DNA from: Candidatus Moraniibacteriota bacterium
GTDB taxonomy: Bacteria > Patescibacteriota > Minisyncoccia > Moranbacterales > UBA1568
Assembly: GCA_028688415.1 (NCBI GenBank)
Contig: JAQTYF010000001.1
Span: 530,627-575,894 of the forward strand
Length of the DNA: 45,268 bases
Reading direction: 5' to 3'
How positions within the stretch are numbered: position 1 is the stretch's first letter; each line of letters begins with the position of its first letter. The notes below the pieces were generated by a model. It was not told the origin of the DNA, ran no database searches, and worked only from the letters and a program-made list of their open reading frames with translations. The translations under genes and the position numbers were made by a program. Of this stretch, positions 4,475 to 36,418 are shown in pieces.

Positions 4475-5746
4475 ATGACCAAACTCACTTTTCCATCAGG
4501 TTTTCTCTGGGGTGCATCTACCGCCTCTCATCAAGTGGAAGGAAACAATACCAATGACTGGTCCGAGTGGGAGAAAAAGAATGCTCATCGTCTTGTACAA
4601 GAATCGAGACAATCTTTCATCACTAACCCACATTGGAAACAATTCAAACAAGAAGCAATCAATCCGCAAAATTATATTTCAGGAACTGCCTGTGATCACT
4701 ACGCACGATTCGAAAGTGATTTCGATCTCATACAAGAGCTCGGTATGAATGCACATCGATTTTCTCTTGAATGGTCTCGTATCGAACCAAGTGAGGGTGT
4801 TTTTGATGAGCACGAGATAGAACATTACCGCACAGTACTTTCTGCCTTGCATAAACGAGGTATCACGCCTTTTGTCACGCTCTGGCACTGGACACTTCCT
4901 CTCTGGCTCGCCAAGCAAGGCGGGGTCGCCAATAAACGTTTTCCATTTTATTTTGCACGCTACACCAAGAAAATTATGCAGACACTTGGTGAGGATATCC
5001 CTTTTTGGATTACACTAAACGAACCAGATGTCGTCTCTGGGCACGCCTATCTGAAAGGCGCTTGGCCACCACAGAAAAAAAATCTCTTGTTATATTATCG
5101 TGTACTTCGTCATCTCGTCAGTGCTCATAAAGAAAGTTATACTCTTATCAAAAAATCTTTCCCTCATGCACAAGTTGGTATTGCCAAACACAATATTTGG
5201 TTTGAGGCAGTGGGCAATACATATATCAATCGTCTCCTCAAGAAAATTGCTGATTTCTTTTGGAATGATTGGTTTTTAAGGCAGATACAGAATGAACAAG
5301 ATTTCATCGGTCTCAATCATTACAATCACCATCGTATCAACAATGGTTTTAACAAAAATGAAAATAAAATTCAAACTGATTTCGGTTGGGAATTCTACCC
5401 CGAGTCCCTCTATCATGCAGTCATCGAACTCAAAAAATATTACAAACCAATCTATATCACCGAGCACGGCATCGCAGATAGCTCCGATATGCTCCGTCCA
5501 CGTTTTTTGAAGGAGTCTCTCACAGCTCTGCATCGTGCTATCGCAGACGGTGCTGATGTCAGAGGATACCTTCACTGGTCGCTCTTGGATAATTTTGAAT
5601 GGGACAAAGGCTACTGGCTCCGGTTTGGTCTCATCGCTGTCGATTTCACCACACAAATTCGTACGCCTCGTGAAAGTGCGATTCTCTATGCTGATATATG
5701 CAAGAGTAATACACTCGAAACCGAAATAACAAAAGAAGAAAATTAA
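4475..5746 (+). CDS. GH1 family beta-glucosidase
   Basis: FPSGFLWGASTASHQVEGN N-terminus, with TLNEP (acid/base Glu) and ITEHG (nucleophile Glu). The ATG at 4475 is preferred over the track TTG at 4424. Confidence 0.9.
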   Translation: MTKLTFPSGFLWGASTASHQVEGNNTNDWSEWEKKNAHRLVQESRQSFITNPHWKQFKQEAINPQNYISGTACDHYARFESDFDLIQELGMNAHRFSLEWSRIEPSEGVFDEHEIEHYRTVLSALHKRGITPFVTLWHWTLPLWLAKQGGVANKRFPFYFARYTKKIMQTLGEDIPFWITLNEPDVVSGHAYLKGAWPPQKKNLLLYYRVLRHLVSAHKESYTLIKKSFPHAQVGIAKHNIWFEAVGNTYINRLLKKIADFFWNDWFLRQIQNEQDFIGLNHYNHHRINNGFNKNENKIQTDFGWEFYPESLYHAVIELKKYYKPIYITEHGIADSSDMLRPRFLKESLTALHRAIADGADVRGYLHWSLLDNFEWDKGYWLRFGLIAVDFTTQIRTPRESAILYADICKSNTLETEITKEEN

Positions 5747-6072: not shown

Positions 6073-6243
6073 CTTTATTACCTCTTTCTTGTGTAAAAAA
6101 ACTCCAATGTTTTCCGAAAAGAAAACTCTTACAGTATACAGAATATGCTTCTTTTTGCAAAAACTTGATTTTTTTGTGCTTTCTGATAGACTCTCTATGC
6201 AGGTTGACCTGCTTTTTCTTTGTTCCACAAAAATCGAGAATAT

Positions 6244-6278
6244 GGCCTCATCGTCTATCGGTTAGGACACCAGGTTTT
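6244..6278 (+). pseudogene. Duplicated 5' half of tRNA-Glu (acceptor 5' strand, D arm, 5' anticodon stem)
   Basis: 6241-6278 is identical to 6571-6608. After CCAGGTTTT it diverges into two small GC hairpins (CACCCAAAGGGTG, CCACCCTCTGGGTGG). No 3' half is present. Confidence 0.85.
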
Positions 6279-6569: not shown

Positions 6570-6573
6570 TTAT

Positions 6574-6645
6574 GGCCTCATCGTCTATCGGTTAGGACAC
6601 CAGGTTTTCATCCTGGGAAGAGGGGTTCGACTCCCCTTGAGGCTA
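6574..6645 (+). tRNA. tRNA-Glu (anticodon UUC)
   Basis: Hand-folded cloverleaf: acceptor GGCCTCA/TGAGGCT, anticodon arm CCAGG-TTTTCAT-CCTGG, T arm AGGGG-TTCGACT-CCCCT. Confidence 0.9.
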
Positions 6646-14833: not shown

Positions 14834-14861
14834 CACAATTACATCAAAAAATGAATAAAGG

Positions 14862-14909
14862 GGTGGCCATCGTTCAATGGCAGGTCCGCCAGTTGGCGGA
14901 TTGTGGTAC
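14862..14909 (+). pseudogene. Partial 5' pseudo-copy of tRNA-His with a palindromic hairpin insert
   Basis: 14847-14884 matches 14918-14955 apart from one position in the 5' flank (a14851 versus g14922); this covers the 5' flank, acceptor 5' strand and D arm. TCCGCCAGTTGGCGGA then replaces ACAATGGT, TTGTGGTAC follows (matching 14964-14972), and no 3' half is present. Confidence 0.8.
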
Positions 14910-14932
14910 AAAATTTAAAAAGTGAATAAAGG

Positions 14933-15004
14933 GGTGGCCATCGTTCAATGGCAGGACAATGGTTTGTGGTACCATGAATCAGGGTTCGATTCCCTGTGGC
15001 CACC
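14933..15004 (+). tRNA. tRNA-His (anticodon GUG) with encoded G-1
   Basis: G-1 pairs with C73. Acceptor GTGGCCA/TGGCCAC, anticodon arm ATGGT-TTGTGGT-ACCAT, T arm CAGGG-TTCGATT-CCCTG. Confidence 0.85.
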
Positions 15005-17330: not shown

Positions 17331-17754
17331 GTTCATTTGTGCGCTCGGCCCGCTTCGACCGATATCTCATCGAGGCGAGAGGGGATCTCCTTCGACTAAA
17401 CTTTTGAGGAGAATGGAATCGGTCACAGATAACTTATTCGCCGACGCTCATAAATTTCCGCGACCCCAGCTCGTGGTTTCGTGTACTCACGAAACATCAC
17501 TCCGCTTTTCTCTCCCCTACGCAAGCCAAGCAGTTGGCTTGCTCCGAGCGACTATTCACTTTGTTCATTTGTGCGCTCGGAGGGGATCTCCTTCGACTAA
17601 ACTTTTGTCGACACAAAAGTTTGTCTAGGCACCGTCTCACGATTTTGTCTGCTGACAAAATATCGTTCTGACGTTCGATCCCCTACGCAAGCCAAGCAGT
17701 TGGCTTGCTCCGAGCGACTATTCACTTTGTTCATTTGTGCGCTCGGAGGGGATC
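17331..17754 (-). repeat. Array of repeated and inverted copies of the tRNA-Arg 3' end plus flank
   Basis: Perfect 75-bp direct repeat at 17514-17588 and 17680-17754; the latter overlaps the last 17 nt of the tRNA. A third partial copy at 17331-17406 is split by a 31-nt hairpin (17349-17379). Confidence 0.85.
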
Positions 17755-17811
17755 GAACCCCCGACCCTCTGGTTCGAAGCCAGATGCTCTAATCCACTGA
17801 GCTACGAGCGC
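17738..17811 (-). tRNA. tRNA-Arg (anticodon UCG)
   Basis: Minus strand GCGCTCG TA GCTC..GAGC A TCTGG-CTTCGAA-CCAGA GGGTC GGGGG-TTCGATC-CCCTC CGAGCGC A. Confidence 0.9.
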
Positions 17812-19149: not shown

Positions 19150-19803
19150 TTATTGTTTTGGCATTTTGAGAACATCGATCACTTTTCCATTGATCACAAA
19201 ATTGTCCTCAGGTGTGAGAAAAATAGGCTTATGTGCTTTATCTGTCGATTCTGGGAGGAGAGCAATTGTCTTTCCATCGACAGAACGATAGGTCTTGACG
19301 GTTGCGAGACCATCGATGACGACCAAAACCCTGTCCCCATTATGATACTCTTTTGTCTGTGCGTCTACAAGAATGAAATCGCCACTCTGAATAGTTTTCC
19401 CATTCACTTTTGCTTTGTTCATCGATGTTCCTGATATTTGTACCGCAAAAACATTTCTATCCTTGACGAGACGCTTCGAAACACGCATATAGCCCTCGAT
19501 ATACTGATCAGCAAACATCGTCGCTGCACCAGCACTCGATGCTCCAAAAACTGGCACATTGATAAAAGTATCTGCATTCACTCCCTTGAGAAGTATTCCT
19601 CTATCCTCTGATGTGCGTTCTATATACCCCTTTTCTTCAAGAGCATTGAGATAAAGAAAAAAACTTCGAAGACTTTTCAGCTTGAGACCGAGTTTTCCTG
19701 TCTCAGTCTTGATTTCTCGTATGGTCGGCATTTCACCATTCTCTGTGAAATACGTTTTGATAGCCTGCAAGACAATTTTTTGCTTTTGTGTGAGAATTTG
19801 CAT
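19150..19803 (-). CDS. lexA: LexA repressor (S24 peptidase)
   Basis: N-terminal wHTH (LTQKQKIVLQAIKTYFTENGEMPTIREI), Ala-Gly site (SSAGAA), GTSM Ser motif, and a C-terminal Lys (NGKVIDVLK). Confidence 0.9.
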   Translation of the reverse strand: MQILTQKQKIVLQAIKTYFTENGEMPTIREIKTETGKLGLKLKSLRSFFLYLNALEEKGYIERTSEDRGILLKGVNADTFINVPVFGASSAGAATMFADQYIEGYMRVSKRLVKDRNVFAVQISGTSMNKAKVNGKTIQSGDFILVDAQTKEYHNGDRVLVVIDGLATVKTYRSVDGKTIALLPESTDKAHKPIFLTPEDNFVINGKVIDVLKMPKQ

Positions 19804-19832
19804 ATTTTTTGTTTACAATACTTACATACACT

Positions 19833-19862
19833 ATGATACACTATCTCTCATCATCTTGTCAA
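19833..19862 (-). promoter_or_regulatory. lexA promoter
   Basis: Minus strand TTGACA-18 nt-TATCAT. The leader downstream is near-identical to the toxin gene leader at 31615-31648. Confidence 0.6.
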
Positions 19863-29798: not shown

Positions 29799-30776
29799 TC
29801 AAATGATTTCATTTTTTGCTCGCTTTTTGCTCGCTGCTTTTTCTTCGAGATACGCTTTATTTCGCCTATCGATCTCTCTGTTTTCAGCTTCACGTTTTTT
29901 CACAGCGATTTGATATTCTTTCTCTTCATTTCTCTCATCGTCAATGACGAAGATCCATCCCAACAAACACAAGACGCTGCAGATTCCTCCCATGAATACC
30001 TTCGTTAGATCAAACCGATGGAAATCATCAGTTAGTCCTGAAAGCAGGAATGACGCTGCTACAAAACTCAAAAAAAGCAGGAAGACATACACATGAGCCC
30101 TACTTGGGGGTGGAGTGACATCTGGCAATCGTTTGATCACGTTCTTGTCTTCAAACAGTGACGCAATGAAGCCTCCTACAACCACAACCGCGACAGCTCC
30201 GGCGGTAACACAAGCGATATCTCCCAAGCTCATGCTAGAAGCGCTTCCGGCATTGCTATTCGTGGATACGCCGGTACTTTTCCCAGATCGGGATTCTCGT
30301 ACACTCACAGCAGTACCACTCCTCTTACACACGGGGTCCGAGCTAGTGCCTCCTGAAGAATATCCGTAGCTTCCGCCACTACCCAAAGGGGTATTCAGTG
30401 AACTACCCGATGATAAGTCAGAACTGTGTGCATTGGAATCATTGCCAATAGCACTTTCCCTCGATACTGGGTCCCACCAGAGATTGAGGAGACCCGACTG
30501 CTGTAGCTCGTTAGTCTCTGGGTCGGTGCGGGTCATTTTTCCAGCATCATTGATGACTGGACTCCAACTCAAGCCGAGTAAGTCAGACTGCTCCTTTATG
30601 CCAGTATCAGGATTTCTCCGACTCATTCTTCCTGATTCATTCGTCACTGGACTATAGAAAAGTCCAAGCGCATCTGACTCTTCAAGAACTCCCGTTTTCG
30701 GATTTTCGCGAAACATTGACATCTCCTGTAAAGAACTCCCTTGAACTAGATTCTCAGAATAGTGCACTAAAGTCAA
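29799..30776 (-). CDS. Hypothetical membrane protein with three N-terminal ~30-aa repeats
   Basis: Repeats NP-x-TG-x-x-E-x-SD-x-LGL-x-x-SPV-x-N-x-x-G-x-M, a Ser/Gly linker, TM segments and a Lys/Glu-rich tail. Confidence 0.6.
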   Translation of the reverse strand: MTLVHYSENLVQGSSLQEMSMFRENPKTGVLEESDALGLFYSPVTNESGRMSRRNPDTGIKEQSDLLGLSWSPVINDAGKMTRTDPETNELQQSGLLNLWWDPVSRESAIGNDSNAHSSDLSSGSSLNTPLGSGGSYGYSSGGTSSDPVCKRSGTAVSVRESRSGKSTGVSTNSNAGSASSMSLGDIACVTAGAVAVVVVGGFIASLFEDKNVIKRLPDVTPPPSRAHVYVFLLFLSFVAASFLLSGLTDDFHRFDLTKVFMGGICSVLCLLGWIFVIDDERNEEKEYQIAVKKREAENREIDRRNKAYLEEKAASKKRAKNEII

Positions 30777-30965
30777 TACCCAAGTTTGAATACCATTCTA
30801 AGTGACAAAAAACAAGGCTTGTTACAGACTCTCCTCCTAGGTCATAATTACAGCGTATTATGTTCTGAAACACTGCAATTGGACAATACTCTCAATAGCC
30901 ATTTCAAACCGCTCGCGATAATCCTTATTAAACAGATTCAGTCTACTCTGGATACTTTCTCGTGT

Positions 30966-31116
30966 AAAAAAACAAGAAAACCCATCTTGCGACGAGTTTC
31001 AATGTCCCTCCACGGCGGATAAACCTGCCCGAAATGCTACGCCCGCCAGAAACGCTGTATCTACTGCGGGCTGGCATAACGTTGCAGATGGGCTTACAGC
31101 ACTTTCCTGAAGAAAA
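30966..31116 (-). repeat. Element E1 (5'-truncated copy with modules A then B on the plus strand) ending in a terminator
   Basis: Shares terminator, GACATTGAAAC and CTGTAAG blocks with E2 and E3. A is at 31007-31024 and B at 31025-31093. Terminator stem is 30981-30996. Confidence 0.8.
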
Positions 31117-31118
31117 TA

Positions 31119-31147
31119 TTGACAAAAATCAATTTTAGGTGTATACT
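31119..31147 (+). promoter_or_regulatory. Consensus sigma-70 promoter facing the toxin gene 3' end
   Basis: TTGACA (31119-31124), 17 nt, TATACT (31142-31147). Confidence 0.6.
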
Positions 31148-31153
31148 GTATCT

Positions 31154-31208
31154 ATTAGTGGCTTCGGCCTCCGAGGACTCATCTGTAAAGGTGGGTCCGA
31201 TTTTTTTT
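31154..31208 (+). ncRNA. Candidate ~55-nt small RNA convergent with the toxin gene
   Basis: Downstream of the consensus promoter. UUCG-capped hairpin, then a 7-bp stem (31175-31181/31192-31198) followed by GA + T8. The 3' end overlaps the toxin stop codon. Confidence 0.45.
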
Positions 31209-31614
31209 AGAAACAGTCTTTGAGTCGCTTCAATACTTCGATGAAACTTTCTTCTGAAATTACTCCAACTTTTCTGAGGATGCGTTTAGAGCTCCATAAT
31301 CGCAATTGAGAAAGATTCGCATACGATACTCCTTTTGAATGTGCAACCTTCACTATATAAGGATTTTCTTTCGCCTTTGAAGTAAGTGGAATTCCCCAAA
31401 ACATCAGTCCGTTAAACTTCTTCACAAGTAACACTGGTCGTTCAAAATCATTATTCTTTCCATCAATCTCTACACCAACATTGATCCCGATTGCACACCA
31501 CCACACTTCACGTTCGTGAATAAAGAGATCTCGATCAACAGATTTTTTGTCTGTTTGCTTTTTCTTTTCATTCCACTTATCAAAGTTTTTTATATATTCG
31601 ATAATGTGTTTCAT
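31207..31614 (-). CDS. MazF/PemK family endoribonuclease toxin (N-terminally extended subfamily)
   Basis: EREVWWCAIGINVGVEIDGK..RPVLLVKK...GIPLTSK and ANLSQLRLWSSKRILRKVGVIS match the MazF/PemK core. No adjacent antitoxin-sized ORF. Confidence 0.8.
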   Translation of the reverse strand: MKHIIEYIKNFDKWNEKKKQTDKKSVDRDLFIHEREVWWCAIGINVGVEIDGKNNDFERPVLLVKKFNGLMFWGIPLTSKAKENPYIVKVAHSKGVSYANLSQLRLWSSKRILRKVGVISEESFIEVLKRLKDCF

Positions 31615-31642
31615 ATTTTTGTTTACACTACTTACATATAGT

Positions 31643-31672
31643 ATAATACAACATTTCGAGAAAAAGTGTCAA
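31643..31672 (-). promoter_or_regulatory. Toxin gene promoter
   Basis: Minus strand TTGACA-18 nt-TATTAT. Same architecture and leader as lexA. Confidence 0.6.
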
Positions 31673-31690
31673 GAGAGAAAACATTTTTTG

Positions 31691-31880
31691 AAAAACAAGA
31701 AAACCCATCATAAGATGGGTTTCAATGTCCTGCCCGCAATGCTACGCCCGCCAGAAACGCTGTATCTACTGCGGGCTGGCATAACGTTGCAGGCGGGCCC
31801 TCCACGGCGGATAAACTTACAGTACTACTTGAAGAAATTCCCCTCCATAGGTGGACTCTATCTTGGGGTAGAGTGCGTCC
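31691..31880 (-). repeat. Element E2 (full copy, modules B then A on the plus strand, plus an extra A-like 15-mer)
   Basis: B at 31730-31798, A at 31799-31816, extra CCTCCATAGGTGGAC at 31842-31856. Terminator CCCATC-ATAA-GATGGG at 31704-31719. Confidence 0.8.
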
Positions 31881-32077
31881 AAATTATTTACAGAATTATT
31901 CTGTTCCTTAAGTGTGGAAATACCTAATTCTTAGACTTTAAACTATCCAAAACTTCCCTAAATAAACGAATTTACATACTATTGGAAATGGTGTCCTTTG
32001 ATGTTTTTTTACTATCTCCATGCAGAAACTCTACAATTTTATTATACACCCTCCCAATCAAAGCCACGAATCCATAT

Positions 32078-34459
32078 TTATTGATAAAAACTTTTTATAA
32101 GGCTGTTGTATTTATTGTTCAATTGATTTCGTGTAACAATTCTTGCATTGAATGCCTTTCTATCCTTTTCGAAAGCATTATATGCTTTTTTATACTTGGA
32201 GAAATAATCGATATAATCATCATAATTGTTCGGCGTAAGATTTTTTTCGAGTTTTTTTATCTTATTTATCATTCTGCTGATTTCTTGATCTTGACTCTCT
32301 AGGTCCCTATCCGAAGCATACAGTTCCCTGTCCATCCTTCGTATCGTAGAGAGGAGGTTGTCGATTTCTTTTTGCGTATTTACCGTATCGATGATTCCAG
32401 TATAGACAAGTCCATTTGTCTTATTCAAAACCTCAATCTTCCCGAGAGGACTTGATGCATCTTCGGTTGCATCCGTTCCGTAATCATTGAGTACAATTTC
32501 CGATGCAGCGATTCCTGACTCCTTTATGATGCTTGGTGTAGATCCGATTTTATTCCCCAAACTTGTAGTCTCCAGGAAGCAGTACCCTGAATCATAATTT
32601 GAGTATTCCTGAGGGCATTCTACTCCTACTGCTATATGTTTATCTTCAGGAAAAAGGAAAAAAGAAGTACCGAACCCTAACTCTCTCAAAAGTAAGTAGG
32701 CGAGATAGCTTTTATCCTGGCAGACGCCTTTGTTTTCATAGAGAACTTCATATGGATACGTTGGTCTTTCGCTTATGCCGTTCAATCCTGCTTCTCTATT
32801 ATTAAACTTCTCGAAATCGTACGGGATAGTTTGGACGAGTGAGGTGACAAGCTCAGCCAACTGATTGTCATTGAAGTTATTCTTGTCACCAATAGCTTTT
32901 AATGATTGTGCGAGATCTTTTATGGTTGCGTCTCCATTTACTTCTCTCAGATAGGCATCATTATTCTTTTCCCACCAACCGACTGCAGACTCTCCGTTAA
33001 AGAGAGCGCCACTCGGTGATGACTGATAAAAGTTATAGTATGAATCATATAAACTCAAATCTAAAGAGTAGTTTTTCCCCTTATACTTCCACGAAAATGG
33101 AACTACTTTTTCGCCTCCTGGATCTGGTAGAATTCGTCCATCTTCACCGCTTATAAACTCGAGCCCATTCACGATCCACTGATTCCTAGCCACACGAAGC
33201 ATAGATATATCGAAACCACTTCCCGTTCCACTTTGTTCTCTACCGATTGCTATATGAGCCGAAGAACCATCTACTGCTTTTTTTTGAATCTTTAAACCGT
33301 GAATCATTCCGTTCTTCTCTTCATTGATTCGGACTACCATCGTATTCACCCACTCCTCCAGATCGTTATTTGAAAATGAAGCAGAATTTGACACAACTAT
33401 CACTCCGTTGGTTATTTCAGACTGAATAGTGGCGGTACTCACGAGCTGACCACCGAAATAGATTGCGAGAGTGCTGCCTACATTTTCTTTCGTTACATCA
33501 CTCAATATCGCACTCCCCTCACTATCAAACTCCAACAGTATCGCCATTTCCTTATTTGAATAATCAACCTGTGCAGACTTGAGCAGTTTTCCTGTAAGCC
33601 CAGTTGGAATAAATATTTCGGCATTCTTAGCAACTTCCGAATTCTGTTTTTTAATCTCTAGAAATGAAGTATTGAAAGTCTTGAAAAGAGAGGCAACTGA
33701 TTGATCAGATGTTTCACCGAAAACTTTTGTAGTAACATCAGCGTGAAGATATTTCTCCACCTCAACAACGTTTTCCGAAACGATGGCTTTCTTTATTTGG
33801 TATAAAGTATATTCTGGAGTTCCTATGATGTAAAAGATCACGGCTACAGAAATGAGCACTATAACAATAACACTGCCGAAGATTACTTGTAACAATTTTA
33901 TCTTCCCTTCTCTCTCTTTGCTGACATATGTATATATGAGCGCAGATATAATAGGAATGAATATCCCTATTAAAGTCGCAATAGGGGTATTCAACTGTAA
34001 ACGCTTTGCTATCTTTCTACAGTAAGAAACGCTCAATATCCATAAAGAAAGAGCTGCTAAAATAAAAAAGGATATAACATCCTTCATTTCTGGCGAAGTC
34101 ACTTTCAGTAAATCTGATATTTTCGGTATGCCGATATTCCAAGAAAGTAATATTGCAACAATTGTTCCTATTGCCCAAAAAAACCACAGGAACGATTTCA
34201 CTCCAGCCATTCTCTTCTTTATTATTGAGAAGATGCTAAACCCTAGAGTCAGAAGCCCAAACACTATGACAACTCTCCAGATATTTATTACTTCTACAAA
34301 CGCTTTGGTTTCATCATTCAAGTTCTGAGCATTCATTAGCAAGGTTGAACAAAAGAGAAGAAACCCAACAGAAAACACAGACGCTATAATGAAGGCCTTC
34401 ACAATGTCTAATTTTTTACTCCAAAGAAGTTTTACGAACTGCAACATACCAATTCTCAT
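32078..34459 (-). CDS. Large polytopic membrane protein with transglutaminase-like Cys-protease core and C-terminal coiled coil
   Basis: N-terminal multi-TM region, KGVCQDKSYLAYLLLRELG (TGase-like Cys) followed by DKHIAVGV and CFLETT, and a coiled-coil tail. Confidence 0.6.
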   Translation of the reverse strand: MRIGMLQFVKLLWSKKLDIVKAFIIASVFSVGFLLFCSTLLMNAQNLNDETKAFVEVINIWRVVIVFGLLTLGFSIFSIIKKRMAGVKSFLWFFWAIGTIVAILLSWNIGIPKISDLLKVTSPEMKDVISFFILAALSLWILSVSYCRKIAKRLQLNTPIATLIGIFIPIISALIYTYVSKEREGKIKLLQVIFGSVIVIVLISVAVIFYIIGTPEYTLYQIKKAIVSENVVEVEKYLHADVTTKVFGETSDQSVASLFKTFNTSFLEIKKQNSEVAKNAEIFIPTGLTGKLLKSAQVDYSNKEMAILLEFDSEGSAILSDVTKENVGSTLAIYFGGQLVSTATIQSEITNGVIVVSNSASFSNNDLEEWVNTMVVRINEEKNGMIHGLKIQKKAVDGSSAHIAIGREQSGTGSGFDISMLRVARNQWIVNGLEFISGEDGRILPDPGGEKVVPFSWKYKGKNYSLDLSLYDSYYNFYQSSPSGALFNGESAVGWWEKNNDAYLREVNGDATIKDLAQSLKAIGDKNNFNDNQLAELVTSLVQTIPYDFEKFNNREAGLNGISERPTYPYEVLYENKGVCQDKSYLAYLLLRELGFGTSFFLFPEDKHIAVGVECPQEYSNYDSGYCFLETTSLGNKIGSTPSIIKESGIAASEIVLNDYGTDATEDASSPLGKIEVLNKTNGLVYTGIIDTVNTQKEIDNLLSTIRRMDRELYASDRDLESQDQEISRMINKIKKLEKNLTPNNYDDYIDYFSKYKKAYNAFEKDRKAFNARIVTRNQLNNKYNSLIKSFYQ

Positions 34460-34654
34460 TATTGACTATAAGCGTATGGCGTATTCTTTCTTATGACGTC
34501 TATCTCTACGCTGACCAGAAAAAATGACCTTCAGAATCTCCTTTCTACCCCACTGACGAATAATATTTTGGTAGCATTTTGATTCCGTAACATTAGCTAT
34601 CTTATTATACACCCGAAATACTTCTAAACTAGTATATATCAAATTTTCTTCCAG

Positions 34655-34741
34655 AAAACAAGAAAACCCGTCTTGCGACGAGTTTCAATGTCTTACAGTA
34701 CTACCCGAAGAAATTCCTTTATCTTGGGGTAGAATGCGTCC
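34655..34741 (-). repeat. Element E3 (module-free copy), downstream of 16S, ending in a terminator
   Basis: Minus strand GGACGCATTCTACCCC..GGGTAGTACTGTAAGACATTGAAAC + CTCGTC-GCAA-GACGGG + UUUUCUUGUUUU. Confidence 0.75.
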
Positions 34742-34919
34742 AAATTATAAACAATTCATAATCTTTTGCGGTTAGTCCTTTTCGTAAGGTCTCTAGTTTT
34801 ATTATGTTTCATTGCTAGAAATGCTCTCGCCTAAGCGTCGGCACTTAATTATACAATGAACGACCATAATGGTTGTGAACCTGATTTTGAGTCAGAATTC
34901 GTACACCTTTATCTCCCTA

Positions 34920-36418
<1,499 letters not shown>

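Follow-up and report, generated by a model that had tools for sequence, protein, structure and literature searches.

The locus

The 45,268-nt stretch of DNA analysed here (termed the window) is from a Candidatus Moraniibacteriota bacterium, contig JAQTYF010000001.1, positions 530,627–575,894. It contains a 135 amino acid open reading frame with the fold of the PemK/MazF toxins and, convergent with it on the opposite strand, the gene of a small RNA. The toxin gene is bracketed by two repeat elements, termed E1 (downstream) and E2 (upstream), and a third, empty copy of their scaffold (E3) is situated near the 16S rRNA gene. An earlier note, made by a model from the sequence alone, had proposed that the toxin is controlled by the structured RNAs of the bracketing elements. 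The analysis points to RNA control, with no protein antitoxin, as likely; the modules of E1 and E2, however, are not the regulators. We consider it likely that the small RNA is the antitoxin. On balance we favour, as the functional unit, a two-gene module bounded by terminators, i.e. the toxin gene and the convergent small RNA, with control by antisense. Coordinates are in Table 1; loci used for comparison are denoted by L and a number.

The toxin gene

MazF/PemK is a textbook type II toxin family. The 135-aa open reading frame matches Pfam PemK_toxin (PF02452) at residues 35–133 (E-value = 5.5e-10, 39.9 bits, cut-off 23.1), and 247 homologues are detectable, several of them labelled Peregrinibacteria or Paceibacterota proteins. 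PemK is the sole Pfam family matched; the ToxN/AbiQ, CptN and TenpN families gave no match. A search of the PDB by the toxin sequence alone gave no match, and neither did the PADLOC defence models at the toxin locus. An AlphaFold (AF2) model of the toxin has a predicted local distance difference test score (pLDDT) of 74. With this model, the best solved structures found by Foldseek are MazF-mt1, E. coli MazF, S. aureus MazF and B. subtilis YdcE; the top PDB matches have a probability of 1.0 and TM-scores of 0.5–0.74, which indicates the SH3-like barrel of MazF/Kid. Among the top 50 matches listed, every one is MazF-type and ToxN is absent. The Pfam and structural matches agree with the earlier assignment of the gene to MazF/PemK.

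Catalytic-type motifs are conserved, i.e. ERPVLLV (R59-P60) and IPLTSK (T78), and we take these Arg and Thr motifs to correspond to R29 and T52 of E. coli MazF. Among 47 homologues there is no variation at R59-P60 and P76, and hardly any at L77-T78. A lysine-rich N-terminal helix (FDxWNxKKK) is specific to the clade and is extra relative to canonical MazF. The toxin promoter is kept in loci L002, L003, L006 and L016.

On the toxin strand, no conserved antitoxin-sized open reading frame of the MazE/PemI, AbrB or ribbon-helix-helix type was found upstream in the window, in keeping with what had been remarked before. An antitoxin-like gene is beside the toxin in 0 of 14 independent homologous loci, and the upstream neighbours of these all differ. 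The 60-aa open reading frame at positions 30943–31125, already suspected of being spurious, is merely an open frame carried by a 69-nt element (module A, see below) and read as MPARSRYSVSGGRS... Between the toxin stop codon and E1 there is no terminator-like site on the toxin strand. To this extent the proposal that E1 provides the only terminator for the toxin mRNA stands; the read-through of the mRNA to E1 that goes with it is a plausible deduction.

The convergent small RNA

The small RNA consists of a 5′ AUUAGU, a hairpin of three pairs capped by a UUCG tetraloop (hairpin 1, GGC-UUCG-GCC), a single-stranded UCCGAG segment and a terminator hairpin at positions 31175–31198. Its U-run overlaps the toxin stop codon (31207–31209). 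In almost every locus a −35/−10 pair precedes the RNA 5′ end by a constant distance, although a few loci have no clear −35, and the spacing between the −10 box and the 5′ AUUAG is fixed at 7 nt.

A covariance model of the small RNA (termed R1) gives one significant match in the window, the small RNA itself (76 bits, E-value = 2e-21), which is thus present as a single copy. In the covariation analysis 95% of cells are paired and double (compensatory) changes are found at 8 of the 13 pairs. None of 500 shuffles equalled this, and the signal collapses when the register is slid. The pairs of hairpin 1 vary among loci, e.g. GGC/GCC, GCC/GGC and AUCCC/GGGAU. Both the UUCG tetraloop and the T-run are present solely on the plus strand, i.e. 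the strand of the small RNA. The 5′ 25 nt are nearly invariant, as against 70%–80% nucleotide identity for the toxin genes, and are under selection.

In some homologues the toxin open reading frame has no stop codon at this place and reads across the antisense of the entire RNA, which gives C-terminal tails such as IGPRISAGSSEAEATN. The antisense overlap between toxin and small RNA is variable between loci and is large in some of them.

No Rfam 15 family reaches its gathering score in the region that comprises the small RNA and modules A and B; at E-values up to 10 there are weak matches at chance level, none of which is on the small RNA. A scan of viral contigs for the small RNA core gave 0 matches. 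A role as a peptide gene was rejected; the RNA is considered non-coding because the lengths of the terminator hairpin vary by non-multiples of three, i.e. out of frame. The possibility that the small RNA pairs with the 5′ untranslated region or ribosome-binding site of the toxin was rejected as well, as no complementarity was seen by eye.

R1 also displays a weak match (11.9 bits, E-value = 0.5) to the UUCG hairpin of the 16S rRNA at positions 36012–36043, which is probably due to chance. MazF toxins can target rRNA.

Co-occurrence of toxin and small RNA

Two samples of loci were used. For the first, nine toxin homologues were picked by protein sequence alone, with identities from 88% down to 50%. 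The small RNA is found convergent after the toxin stop codon in all nine, in unrelated genomic contexts. The convergent RNA, which the earlier note had named only as an item to test, is therefore a conserved partner of the toxin gene in this sample.

The second sample started from the RNA. An exact 21-nt core pattern yielded 20 genome stretches from metagenome-assembled genomes labelled Peregrinibacteria/Peribacteria, Moraniibacteriota, Saccharibacteria and Paceibacterota, among others. The toxin is in the convergent position in 13 of the 20, and five have an intact small RNA gene without an intact toxin; one match is cut off by the end of the stretch and another is a chance match in a coding region. 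One of the five orphan RNA genes adjoins a decayed toxin C-terminus. Among the loci examined no toxin was found without the small RNA, while the small RNA is sometimes found without the toxin. Such an asymmetry is expected if the RNA is the antidote. At one locus (L018, 3315–4100) the orphan small RNA faces a 197-aa open reading frame with a PIN-like N-terminus (LLDTNVI) and not a MazF-like gene.

Five distant homologues, with 35%–42% identity, show an analogous unit composed of a convergent promoter, a 5′ hairpin and a terminator hairpin. Two are from viral contigs (39%–42%), and the others from plasmids of Nitratiruptor, Helicobacter suis and C. jejuni (pVir) (35%–42%). The small RNA architecture is kept in these but the sequences differ and UCCGAG is lost.

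The cassette common to L002 and L003, two loci in different contexts, comprises only the terminator, the toxin, the small RNA and the promoters. This composition speaks against a conventional type II toxin (MazEF, PemIK, Kid-Kis) for which the gene of the protein antitoxin has disappeared or is at another place in the genome, with the small RNA as an unrelated regulator or a bidirectional terminator. Such a toxin would account for the PF02452 match, the common fold and family and the catalytic Arg and Thr motifs. Annotation pipelines do call all homologues type II toxins, and the visible part of the genome amounts to 45 kb. A co-transcribed upstream MazE/PemI gene is nevertheless seen in none of the 14 loci, and the clade has its extra N-terminal helix. 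Furthermore, a bare terminator needs no promoter at a fixed distance, no invariant 5′ segment and no covarying 5′ hairpin. We consider the type II explanation improbable.

Several toxin/small RNA modules (L004, L008–L011) are embedded in restriction-modification or defence islands. One such context has HsdM, Fic/RhuM and AAA_15 neighbours, and another has SNF2 helicase, DUF4391, N6_N4 methyltransferase and ResIII neighbours. This hints at an abortive-infection or island-stabilising role.

The location of several homologues in such islands, together with the very tight conservation of the RNA, could also be explained if the protein were a dedicated RNase, with the small RNA as its substrate or cofactor (in processing or defence signalling), and not a growth-arresting toxin. 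This explanation appears very improbable. The MazF catalytic-type residues are kept, the strong insulated promoter carries an operator-like site, and the presence of orphan RNAs with decayed or lost toxins, with no toxin lacking an RNA, is the pattern of an addiction pair.

The repeat elements that bracket the toxin gene

As had been described earlier, the two elements flank the toxin gene in direct orientation. The module A repeats (31024–31093 and 31729–31798) are 96% identical with a 47-nt identical core, which no shuffle matched, and the module B copies (31006–31024 and 31798–31816, 19 nt) are 100% identical. On the plus strand E1 reads B-A and E2 reads A-B. The fold-energy z-scores of the two elements are −5.2 and −3.0. 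The E2 terminator marks the end of the upstream 793-aa gene and serves as an insulator of the toxin promoter; its tail lies ~18 nt before the toxin −35 box, the distance given before.

Table 1. Positions of the features of the toxin locus and of related sequences in the window
Feature	Positions	Strand	Remarks
PemK/MazF-fold toxin gene	31207–31614	minus	135 aa; Pfam PF02452
Toxin promoter	31643–31672	minus	TTGACA-18-TATTAT, 11/12 consensus positions
Operator-like motif TGTAAGTAGTGTAAACA	31620–31636	minus	directly after toxin −10 box
Small RNA promoter	31119–31147	plus	TTGACA-17-TATACT, 11/12 consensus positions
Small RNA	31154–31206	plus	~53–55 nt; candidate RNA antitoxin; covariance model R1
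Terminator T, E1	30967–31005	minus	stem 31000–30977; first terminator available to toxin transcript
Module B′, E1	31006–31023	minus	identical to E2 copy
Element A, E1 copy	31024–31092	minus	between CTGTAAG and B′; R2 93 bits
S2-like scaffold remnant, E1	31093–31117	minus	abuts small RNA promoter; read from sequence
E1, composition		minus	S2-A-B′-T
Terminator T, E2	31690–31728	minus	10-bp stem 31723–31700 and T-run; fold z-score −5.2
Element A, E2 copy	31729–31797	minus	69 nt, between B′ and terminator; R2 99 bits
Module B′ (TTTATCCGCCGTGGAGGG), E2	31798–31815	minus	copies 100% identical; local scaffold part
Rest of E2 scaffold	31816–31895	minus	S1, small B-like hairpin insert, S2
E2, composition		minus	S1-(small hairpin)-S2-B′-A-T
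E3, empty scaffold copy (without A, without B)	34654–34760	minus	~160 nt 3′ of 16S rRNA (34921–36417)
E3, composition		minus	S1-S2-T
Operator-like motif, lexA promoter	19810–19826	minus	same motif; lexA is the open reading frame 19150–19803
Element A derivative	1716–1751	plus	internally deleted, 36 nt; in frame in recG; R2 26–28 bits

Repeats D10 and D12 of the E2 scaffold are 89%–92% identical to positions 34692–34753 and paralogous to the 16S trailer. In L003 the toxin cassette comes directly after a 16S trailer, and a B′-like module without A is found after the toxin. E1 and E2 are a duplicated 16S-trailer/terminator scaffold (S1-S2-B′-T) and are bystanders to toxin control.

Module A was studied with a covariance model of its own (termed R2) and with a metagenome scan whose pattern was built from the stems of A. 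The scan yielded 31 stretches with A, representing 23 distinct element sequences (L045–L075). The element is sharply bounded and mostly exactly 69 nt in length (CCCGCCTGCAACGCTATGCCAGCCCGCAGTAGATACAGCGTTTCTGGCGGGCGTAGCATTGCGGGCAGG); its flanks are unrelated, long contigs have several copies, and in these stretches it is never beside B. It folds as one long hairpin with compensatory changes at five pairs. It is found in frame within def (Pep_deformylase), a cobalamin adenosyltransferase gene (Cob_adeno_trans), thrS (ThrRS), ruvC (RuvC) and rpmE (L31), where it encodes PARN...GG(R), in either orientation. The derivative in the recG gene of the window translates as PARNASLNDAGG, and the RecG Pfam domains are matched. 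A loose A-like pattern gave three matches in viral contigs, probably by chance.

Both insertion junctions of A have an empty counterpart in a paralogous copy. The E2 junction GGAGGG/ACATTG (the slash marks the insertion point) is intact in E1 and in L003, and the E1 junction GTAAG/TTTATCC is intact in E2. Because each empty junction survives in the other copy, the B-A/A-B permutation is read as two independent insertions of A, either side of B′. A comparison of filled and empty paralogous junctions shows no target-site duplication at the two window copies, and no transposase or other mobilising enzyme for A is present in the window. An origin of E1 and E2 by circular permutation of a functional RNA, or by way of a circular intermediate, was considered and was rejected because A occurs elsewhere as a discrete unit of 69 nt not accompanied by B and because both empty junctions exist. 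Inversion of a palindrome was rejected as well; the strand of B and of A is the same in both copies. The Rfam results given above for the region led us to discard a riboswitch, a ribozyme (including a permuted one) or a transfer-messenger RNA as the identity of A or B.

Module A is unrelated to the toxin. With R2 and blastn it was found in 0 of 27 other toxin or small RNA loci (~190 kb in total), it is also absent from the flanks of close toxin homologues, and R1 gives no significant match in the 26 A-bearing stretches that were searched with it. The earlier note had named the lack of an association between this toxin clade and the RNA elements in other genomes as a refutation of its proposal, and this is the outcome obtained.

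A is an element of the type of the Rickettsia palindromic elements (RPEs) and repetitive extragenic palindromic (REP) sequences, i.e. a mobile hairpin. Like these and the miniature transposable elements with inverted repeats (MITEs), it is short, dispersed and multi-copy, has a hairpin maintained by compensatory changes, and inserts in frame in protein genes without breaking them. Its length of 69 nt and the lack of target-site duplication at the window copies, the latter also unlike a classical MITE, set it apart, and the likeness is one of properties. The presence of the hairpin in essential genes parallels the RPEs, apparently in other reduced genomes. The suggestion that the flanking repeats mark a mobile cassette was thus correct in part: they do reflect cassette-like or mobile DNA, but the mobile hairpin has no relation to the toxin.

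These results bear on the original proposal, in which E2 would be an upstream ToxI-like RNA and E1 a regulatory 3′ untranslated region. Two copies do bracket the toxin in direct orientation, both fold stably (see the z-scores above), and E1 would belong to the toxin 3′ untranslated region. Nevertheless we regard regulation of the toxin by A and B as scarcely probable at all. The absence of A from the 27 other loci and from the flanks of close homologues, its occurrence in 31 metagenome stretches of unrelated context, and its frequent position in frame in housekeeping genes such as those listed above all speak against it. In addition, two insertions account for the permutation, with both empty junctions kept, and an empty scaffold follows the 16S gene without an adjoining toxin. 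There is no tandem array either: as the earlier note had observed, the RNA is not repetitive, and Tandem Repeats Finder (TRF) found none in 30700–32100, A and B being single copy in each element. The comparison with ToxIN fails for A and B on this account, and also because the toxin is MazF-like and not ToxN-like and A is dispersed.

An operator-like motif shared with lexA

The operator-like motif directly after the toxin −10 box is also present at the lexA promoter. The LexA open reading frame matches TIGR00498 with 118 bits (cut-off 111), and the 42 nt around the toxin −10 box and 5′ untranslated region (31616–31657) are 83% identical to positions 19806–19847 of the lexA region (repeat D9). 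In three genomes the core of the motif, TGTAA-N6-TAAACA, comes after the lexA −10 box, and in five genomes it comes after that of the toxin gene. It was not found elsewhere, beyond toxin and lexA genes, in the window and 75 loci (~0.5 Mb). Outside the window, such sites are at 5362–5378 of L026 and 814–830 of L020.

The lexA gene is normally autoregulated, and for this reason the motif is a plausible LexA operator. As a candidate operator, it would place the toxin of this sub-lineage under SOS induction. It is a first candidate SOS box for these lineages.

Proposed mode of action

The toxin transcript, which has no terminator of its own, would run through the small RNA gene to the E1 terminator, and because of this read-through the 3′ end of the toxin mRNA would be fully complementary to the small RNA. 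An abundant small RNA may then pair with the toxin 3′ region and keep toxin synthesis off, either by duplex-triggered decay, by transcriptional interference from convergent transcription, or by both. The scaffolds would supply the insulating terminator upstream of the toxin and the terminator downstream that ends its transcript. In this sub-lineage DNA damage would probably derepress toxin transcription via the lexA-type operator site. The conserved single-stranded UCCGAG and the covarying 5′ hairpin suggest that the RNA may also, or instead, contact the toxin protein. That the RNA acts mainly by antisense is an evenly balanced proposition; that it acts mainly by binding the protein is less probable.

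MazF dimers bind single-stranded RNA in the groove that is occupied by MazE, and toxins of the ToxN type, which have a related fold, are inhibited by RNA. The small RNA with its two hairpins could thus act in the manner of type III systems (ToxIN, CptIN, TenpIN), binding the MazF-like protein via UCCGAG as a pseudo-substrate or decoy, instead of or besides silencing the mRNA. As in these systems, an RNA would neutralise an endoribonuclease of Kid/MazF-related fold and a terminator separates the RNA unit from the toxin unit. The 5′ 25 nt are near-invariant and hairpin 1 covaries while the toxins diverge to 50% protein identity, and antisense pairing alone would not impose such conservation; the lysine-rich N-terminal helix, not present in canonical MazF, also fits a protein contact. 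Several properties of the module are, however, unlike type III. The RNA is a single copy, with no tandem repeat array, and is downstream and convergent, not upstream. Its 3′ end is locked on the toxin stop codon and is sometimes deep in the open reading frame, which is an antisense geometry, and the RNAs of distant homologues keep the architecture but lose UCCGAG. The toxin is a PF02452 member, MazF and not ToxN comes first among the structures matched, and PADLOC gives no match. We regard a type III-like action as a doubtful alternative to the antisense module.

A number of points weigh against the two-gene antisense module. Complementarity is automatic for a cis-antisense RNA, which therefore needs no sequence conservation. 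The invariant UCCGAG and 5′ hairpin consequently indicate another interaction, at least in part (protein binding or processing), and the near-invariant 5′ 25 nt argue for a further contact that depends on sequence, for which the simplest partner would be the toxin, in a type III-like manner. The invariance of the core is itself partly built in because the 13 toxin loci of the RNA-first sample were ascertained by an exact 21-mer, and the sample free of this bias is that of the nine protein-first loci. In the distant homologues the small RNAs were recognised by eye and not by the covariance model. A MazE-like antitoxin gene may be present elsewhere in the genome, of which 45 kb have been seen. 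With regard to lexA, the link consists of motif sharing only; the motif is not an obvious palindrome, and it is missing in toxin loci L004 and L008/L029 and in distant clades. The toxicity of the protein and LexA control are what we infer from these sequence data, as are the function of the small RNA as an antitoxin and the way in which it acts.

A more far-reaching idea, which is speculative and which we think unlikely to hold as a whole, is that this MazF/PemK clade has swapped MazE for a single non-repetitive small RNA that acts both as a decoy of the enzyme and as a silencer of the mRNA, a hybrid of types I and III that in one sub-lineage is wired to the SOS response by a LexA operator not described before. 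Such a clade may span several phyla of the Candidate Phyla Radiation (CPR), a group of ultra-small uncultured bacteria, and reach viral contigs and Campylobacterota plasmids. The UCCGAG segment beside the cUUCGg hairpin possibly mimics an rRNA target.

If the small RNA is the antitoxin, then MazF/PemK toxins are recurrently under the control of RNA and not of MazE. Many “orphan” MazF genes in CPR genomes, viral contigs and plasmids of Campylobacter/Helicobacter would then be complete two-part systems, which annotation pipelines that consider only proteins miss. The invariant RNA motif offers direct access to what this uncharacterised MazF clade recognises.

Comparison with known systems

The module has the geometry of a type I system, with a toxin of the MazF fold. 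The feature that marks type I, an RNA with a transcription unit of its own and with complementarity to the toxin transcript, is present, as judged from the deduced extents of the transcripts. Three cases will be compared: a C. jejuni plasmid, type I systems of B. subtilis, and SOS-regulated pairs of E. coli.

CjrA/CjpT of C. jejuni is reportedly a type I system (said to be the work of Shen et al. in 2016). The pVir plasmid carries a coding sequence homologous to the window toxin (pVir0047, positions 30634–31038, plus strand; 35% identity, E-value = 2e-11), which, like the window gene, has no adjacent protein antitoxin. A small RNA of 77 nt, CJpv3, is encoded on the minus strand from 31119 to 31043 and was verified by Northern blot (Dugar et al. 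2013, PMC3656092, Table S12); its support comprises differential RNA sequencing (dRNA-seq) and Northern blot (PMC3656092). It is convergent with the toxin homologue and ends 5 nt after the toxin stop codon. According to two papers (PMC10470494, PMC7826846), pVir carries a validated type I antitoxin RNA, CjrA. We think it fairly probable that CjpT is the PemK-like pVir0047 and CjrA is CJpv3. The small RNAs of pVir and the window cannot be aligned and R1 misses CJpv3, and the host is a Campylobacterota plasmid, in contrast to a CPR chromosome. Should CjpT be the PemK-like gene, the window module would add a distant member to a family already characterised; otherwise it is a variant of RNA-controlled toxin-antitoxin systems.

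The pVir precedent (CJpv3, perhaps CjrA/CjpT) limits the novelty of the module, which is coherent, testable and widespread and for which an experimental precedent is probable. The literature searched contains no description of this clade with an RNA partner. The CPR-wide small RNA family, its invariant motif, the lexA link and the 69-nt in-frame hairpin appear to be undescribed in that literature.

In B. subtilis, txpA/RatA, bsrG/SR4 and bsrE/SR5 are type I systems with a convergent antisense RNA that overlaps the 3′ end of the toxin gene. The window module resembles these in having separate convergent genes with their own promoters and overlapping 3′ ends, and, by analogy, in the proposed duplex with the toxin mRNA. 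The B. subtilis toxins, on the other hand, are small hydrophobic membrane peptides, a kind of toxin that is typical of type I though not universal in it, unlike the 135-aa soluble MazF-fold RNase here, and the window RNA is more conserved in sequence than cis-antisense pairing requires.

The E. coli pairs symE/SymR and tisB/IstR-1 offer a possible analogy of a LexA-controlled toxin that is checked by a constitutive small RNA, although LexA control in the window is deduced from the shared motif only. SymE is, in addition, an RNA-cleaving protein and not a membrane peptide. SymR, however, overlaps the 5′ end of symE, and the fold of SymE is AbrB/MazE-like.

Neighbouring genes and other repeats in the window

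The gene upstream of E2 encodes a 793-aa membrane protein (SecDF_P1_head domain, positions 32078–34459) and is situated between direct repeats of the scaffold that are ~90% identical (34654–34760 and 31690–31895). Elsewhere, homologues of the 793-aa protein are neighbours of genes for primase, HTH_17 and DUF5659, surroundings that are typical of mobile elements. The gene has the appearance of a cassette that recombination brought in at the terminator scaffold. No E-like sequences were found with the relatives of this gene, which therefore provide no syntenic empty site. In L002 several single genes are separated by the same terminator repeat. Integron attC-like sites or a cassette array were considered and are an unproven idea; the scaffolds do separate single-gene units here and in L002. 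Inspection of the B/S2 junction revealed no R′/R″ core sites, and there is no integrase among the open reading frames annotated in the window.

The 16S rRNA gene (34654–36417 with its trailer) is apparently a stand-alone transcription unit with its own terminator. No 23S rRNA, 5S rRNA or spacer tRNA gene was found in the window.

Several tRNA genes are accompanied by repeats. The 5′ part of tRNA-Glu is duplicated shortly upstream (6241–6278 and 6571–6608, 38 nt, 100% identity), as is the region of tRNA-His (14846–14884 and 14917–14955, 39 nt, 97% identity). Integration or excision at tRNA genes may have left these 5′ duplications as footprints. Beside tRNA-Arg (17737–17811), positions 17379–17754 contain direct repeats of ~119 nt with 86% identity, and a 28-nt exact repeat, whose copies are 201 nt apart, is present near the same tRNA gene.

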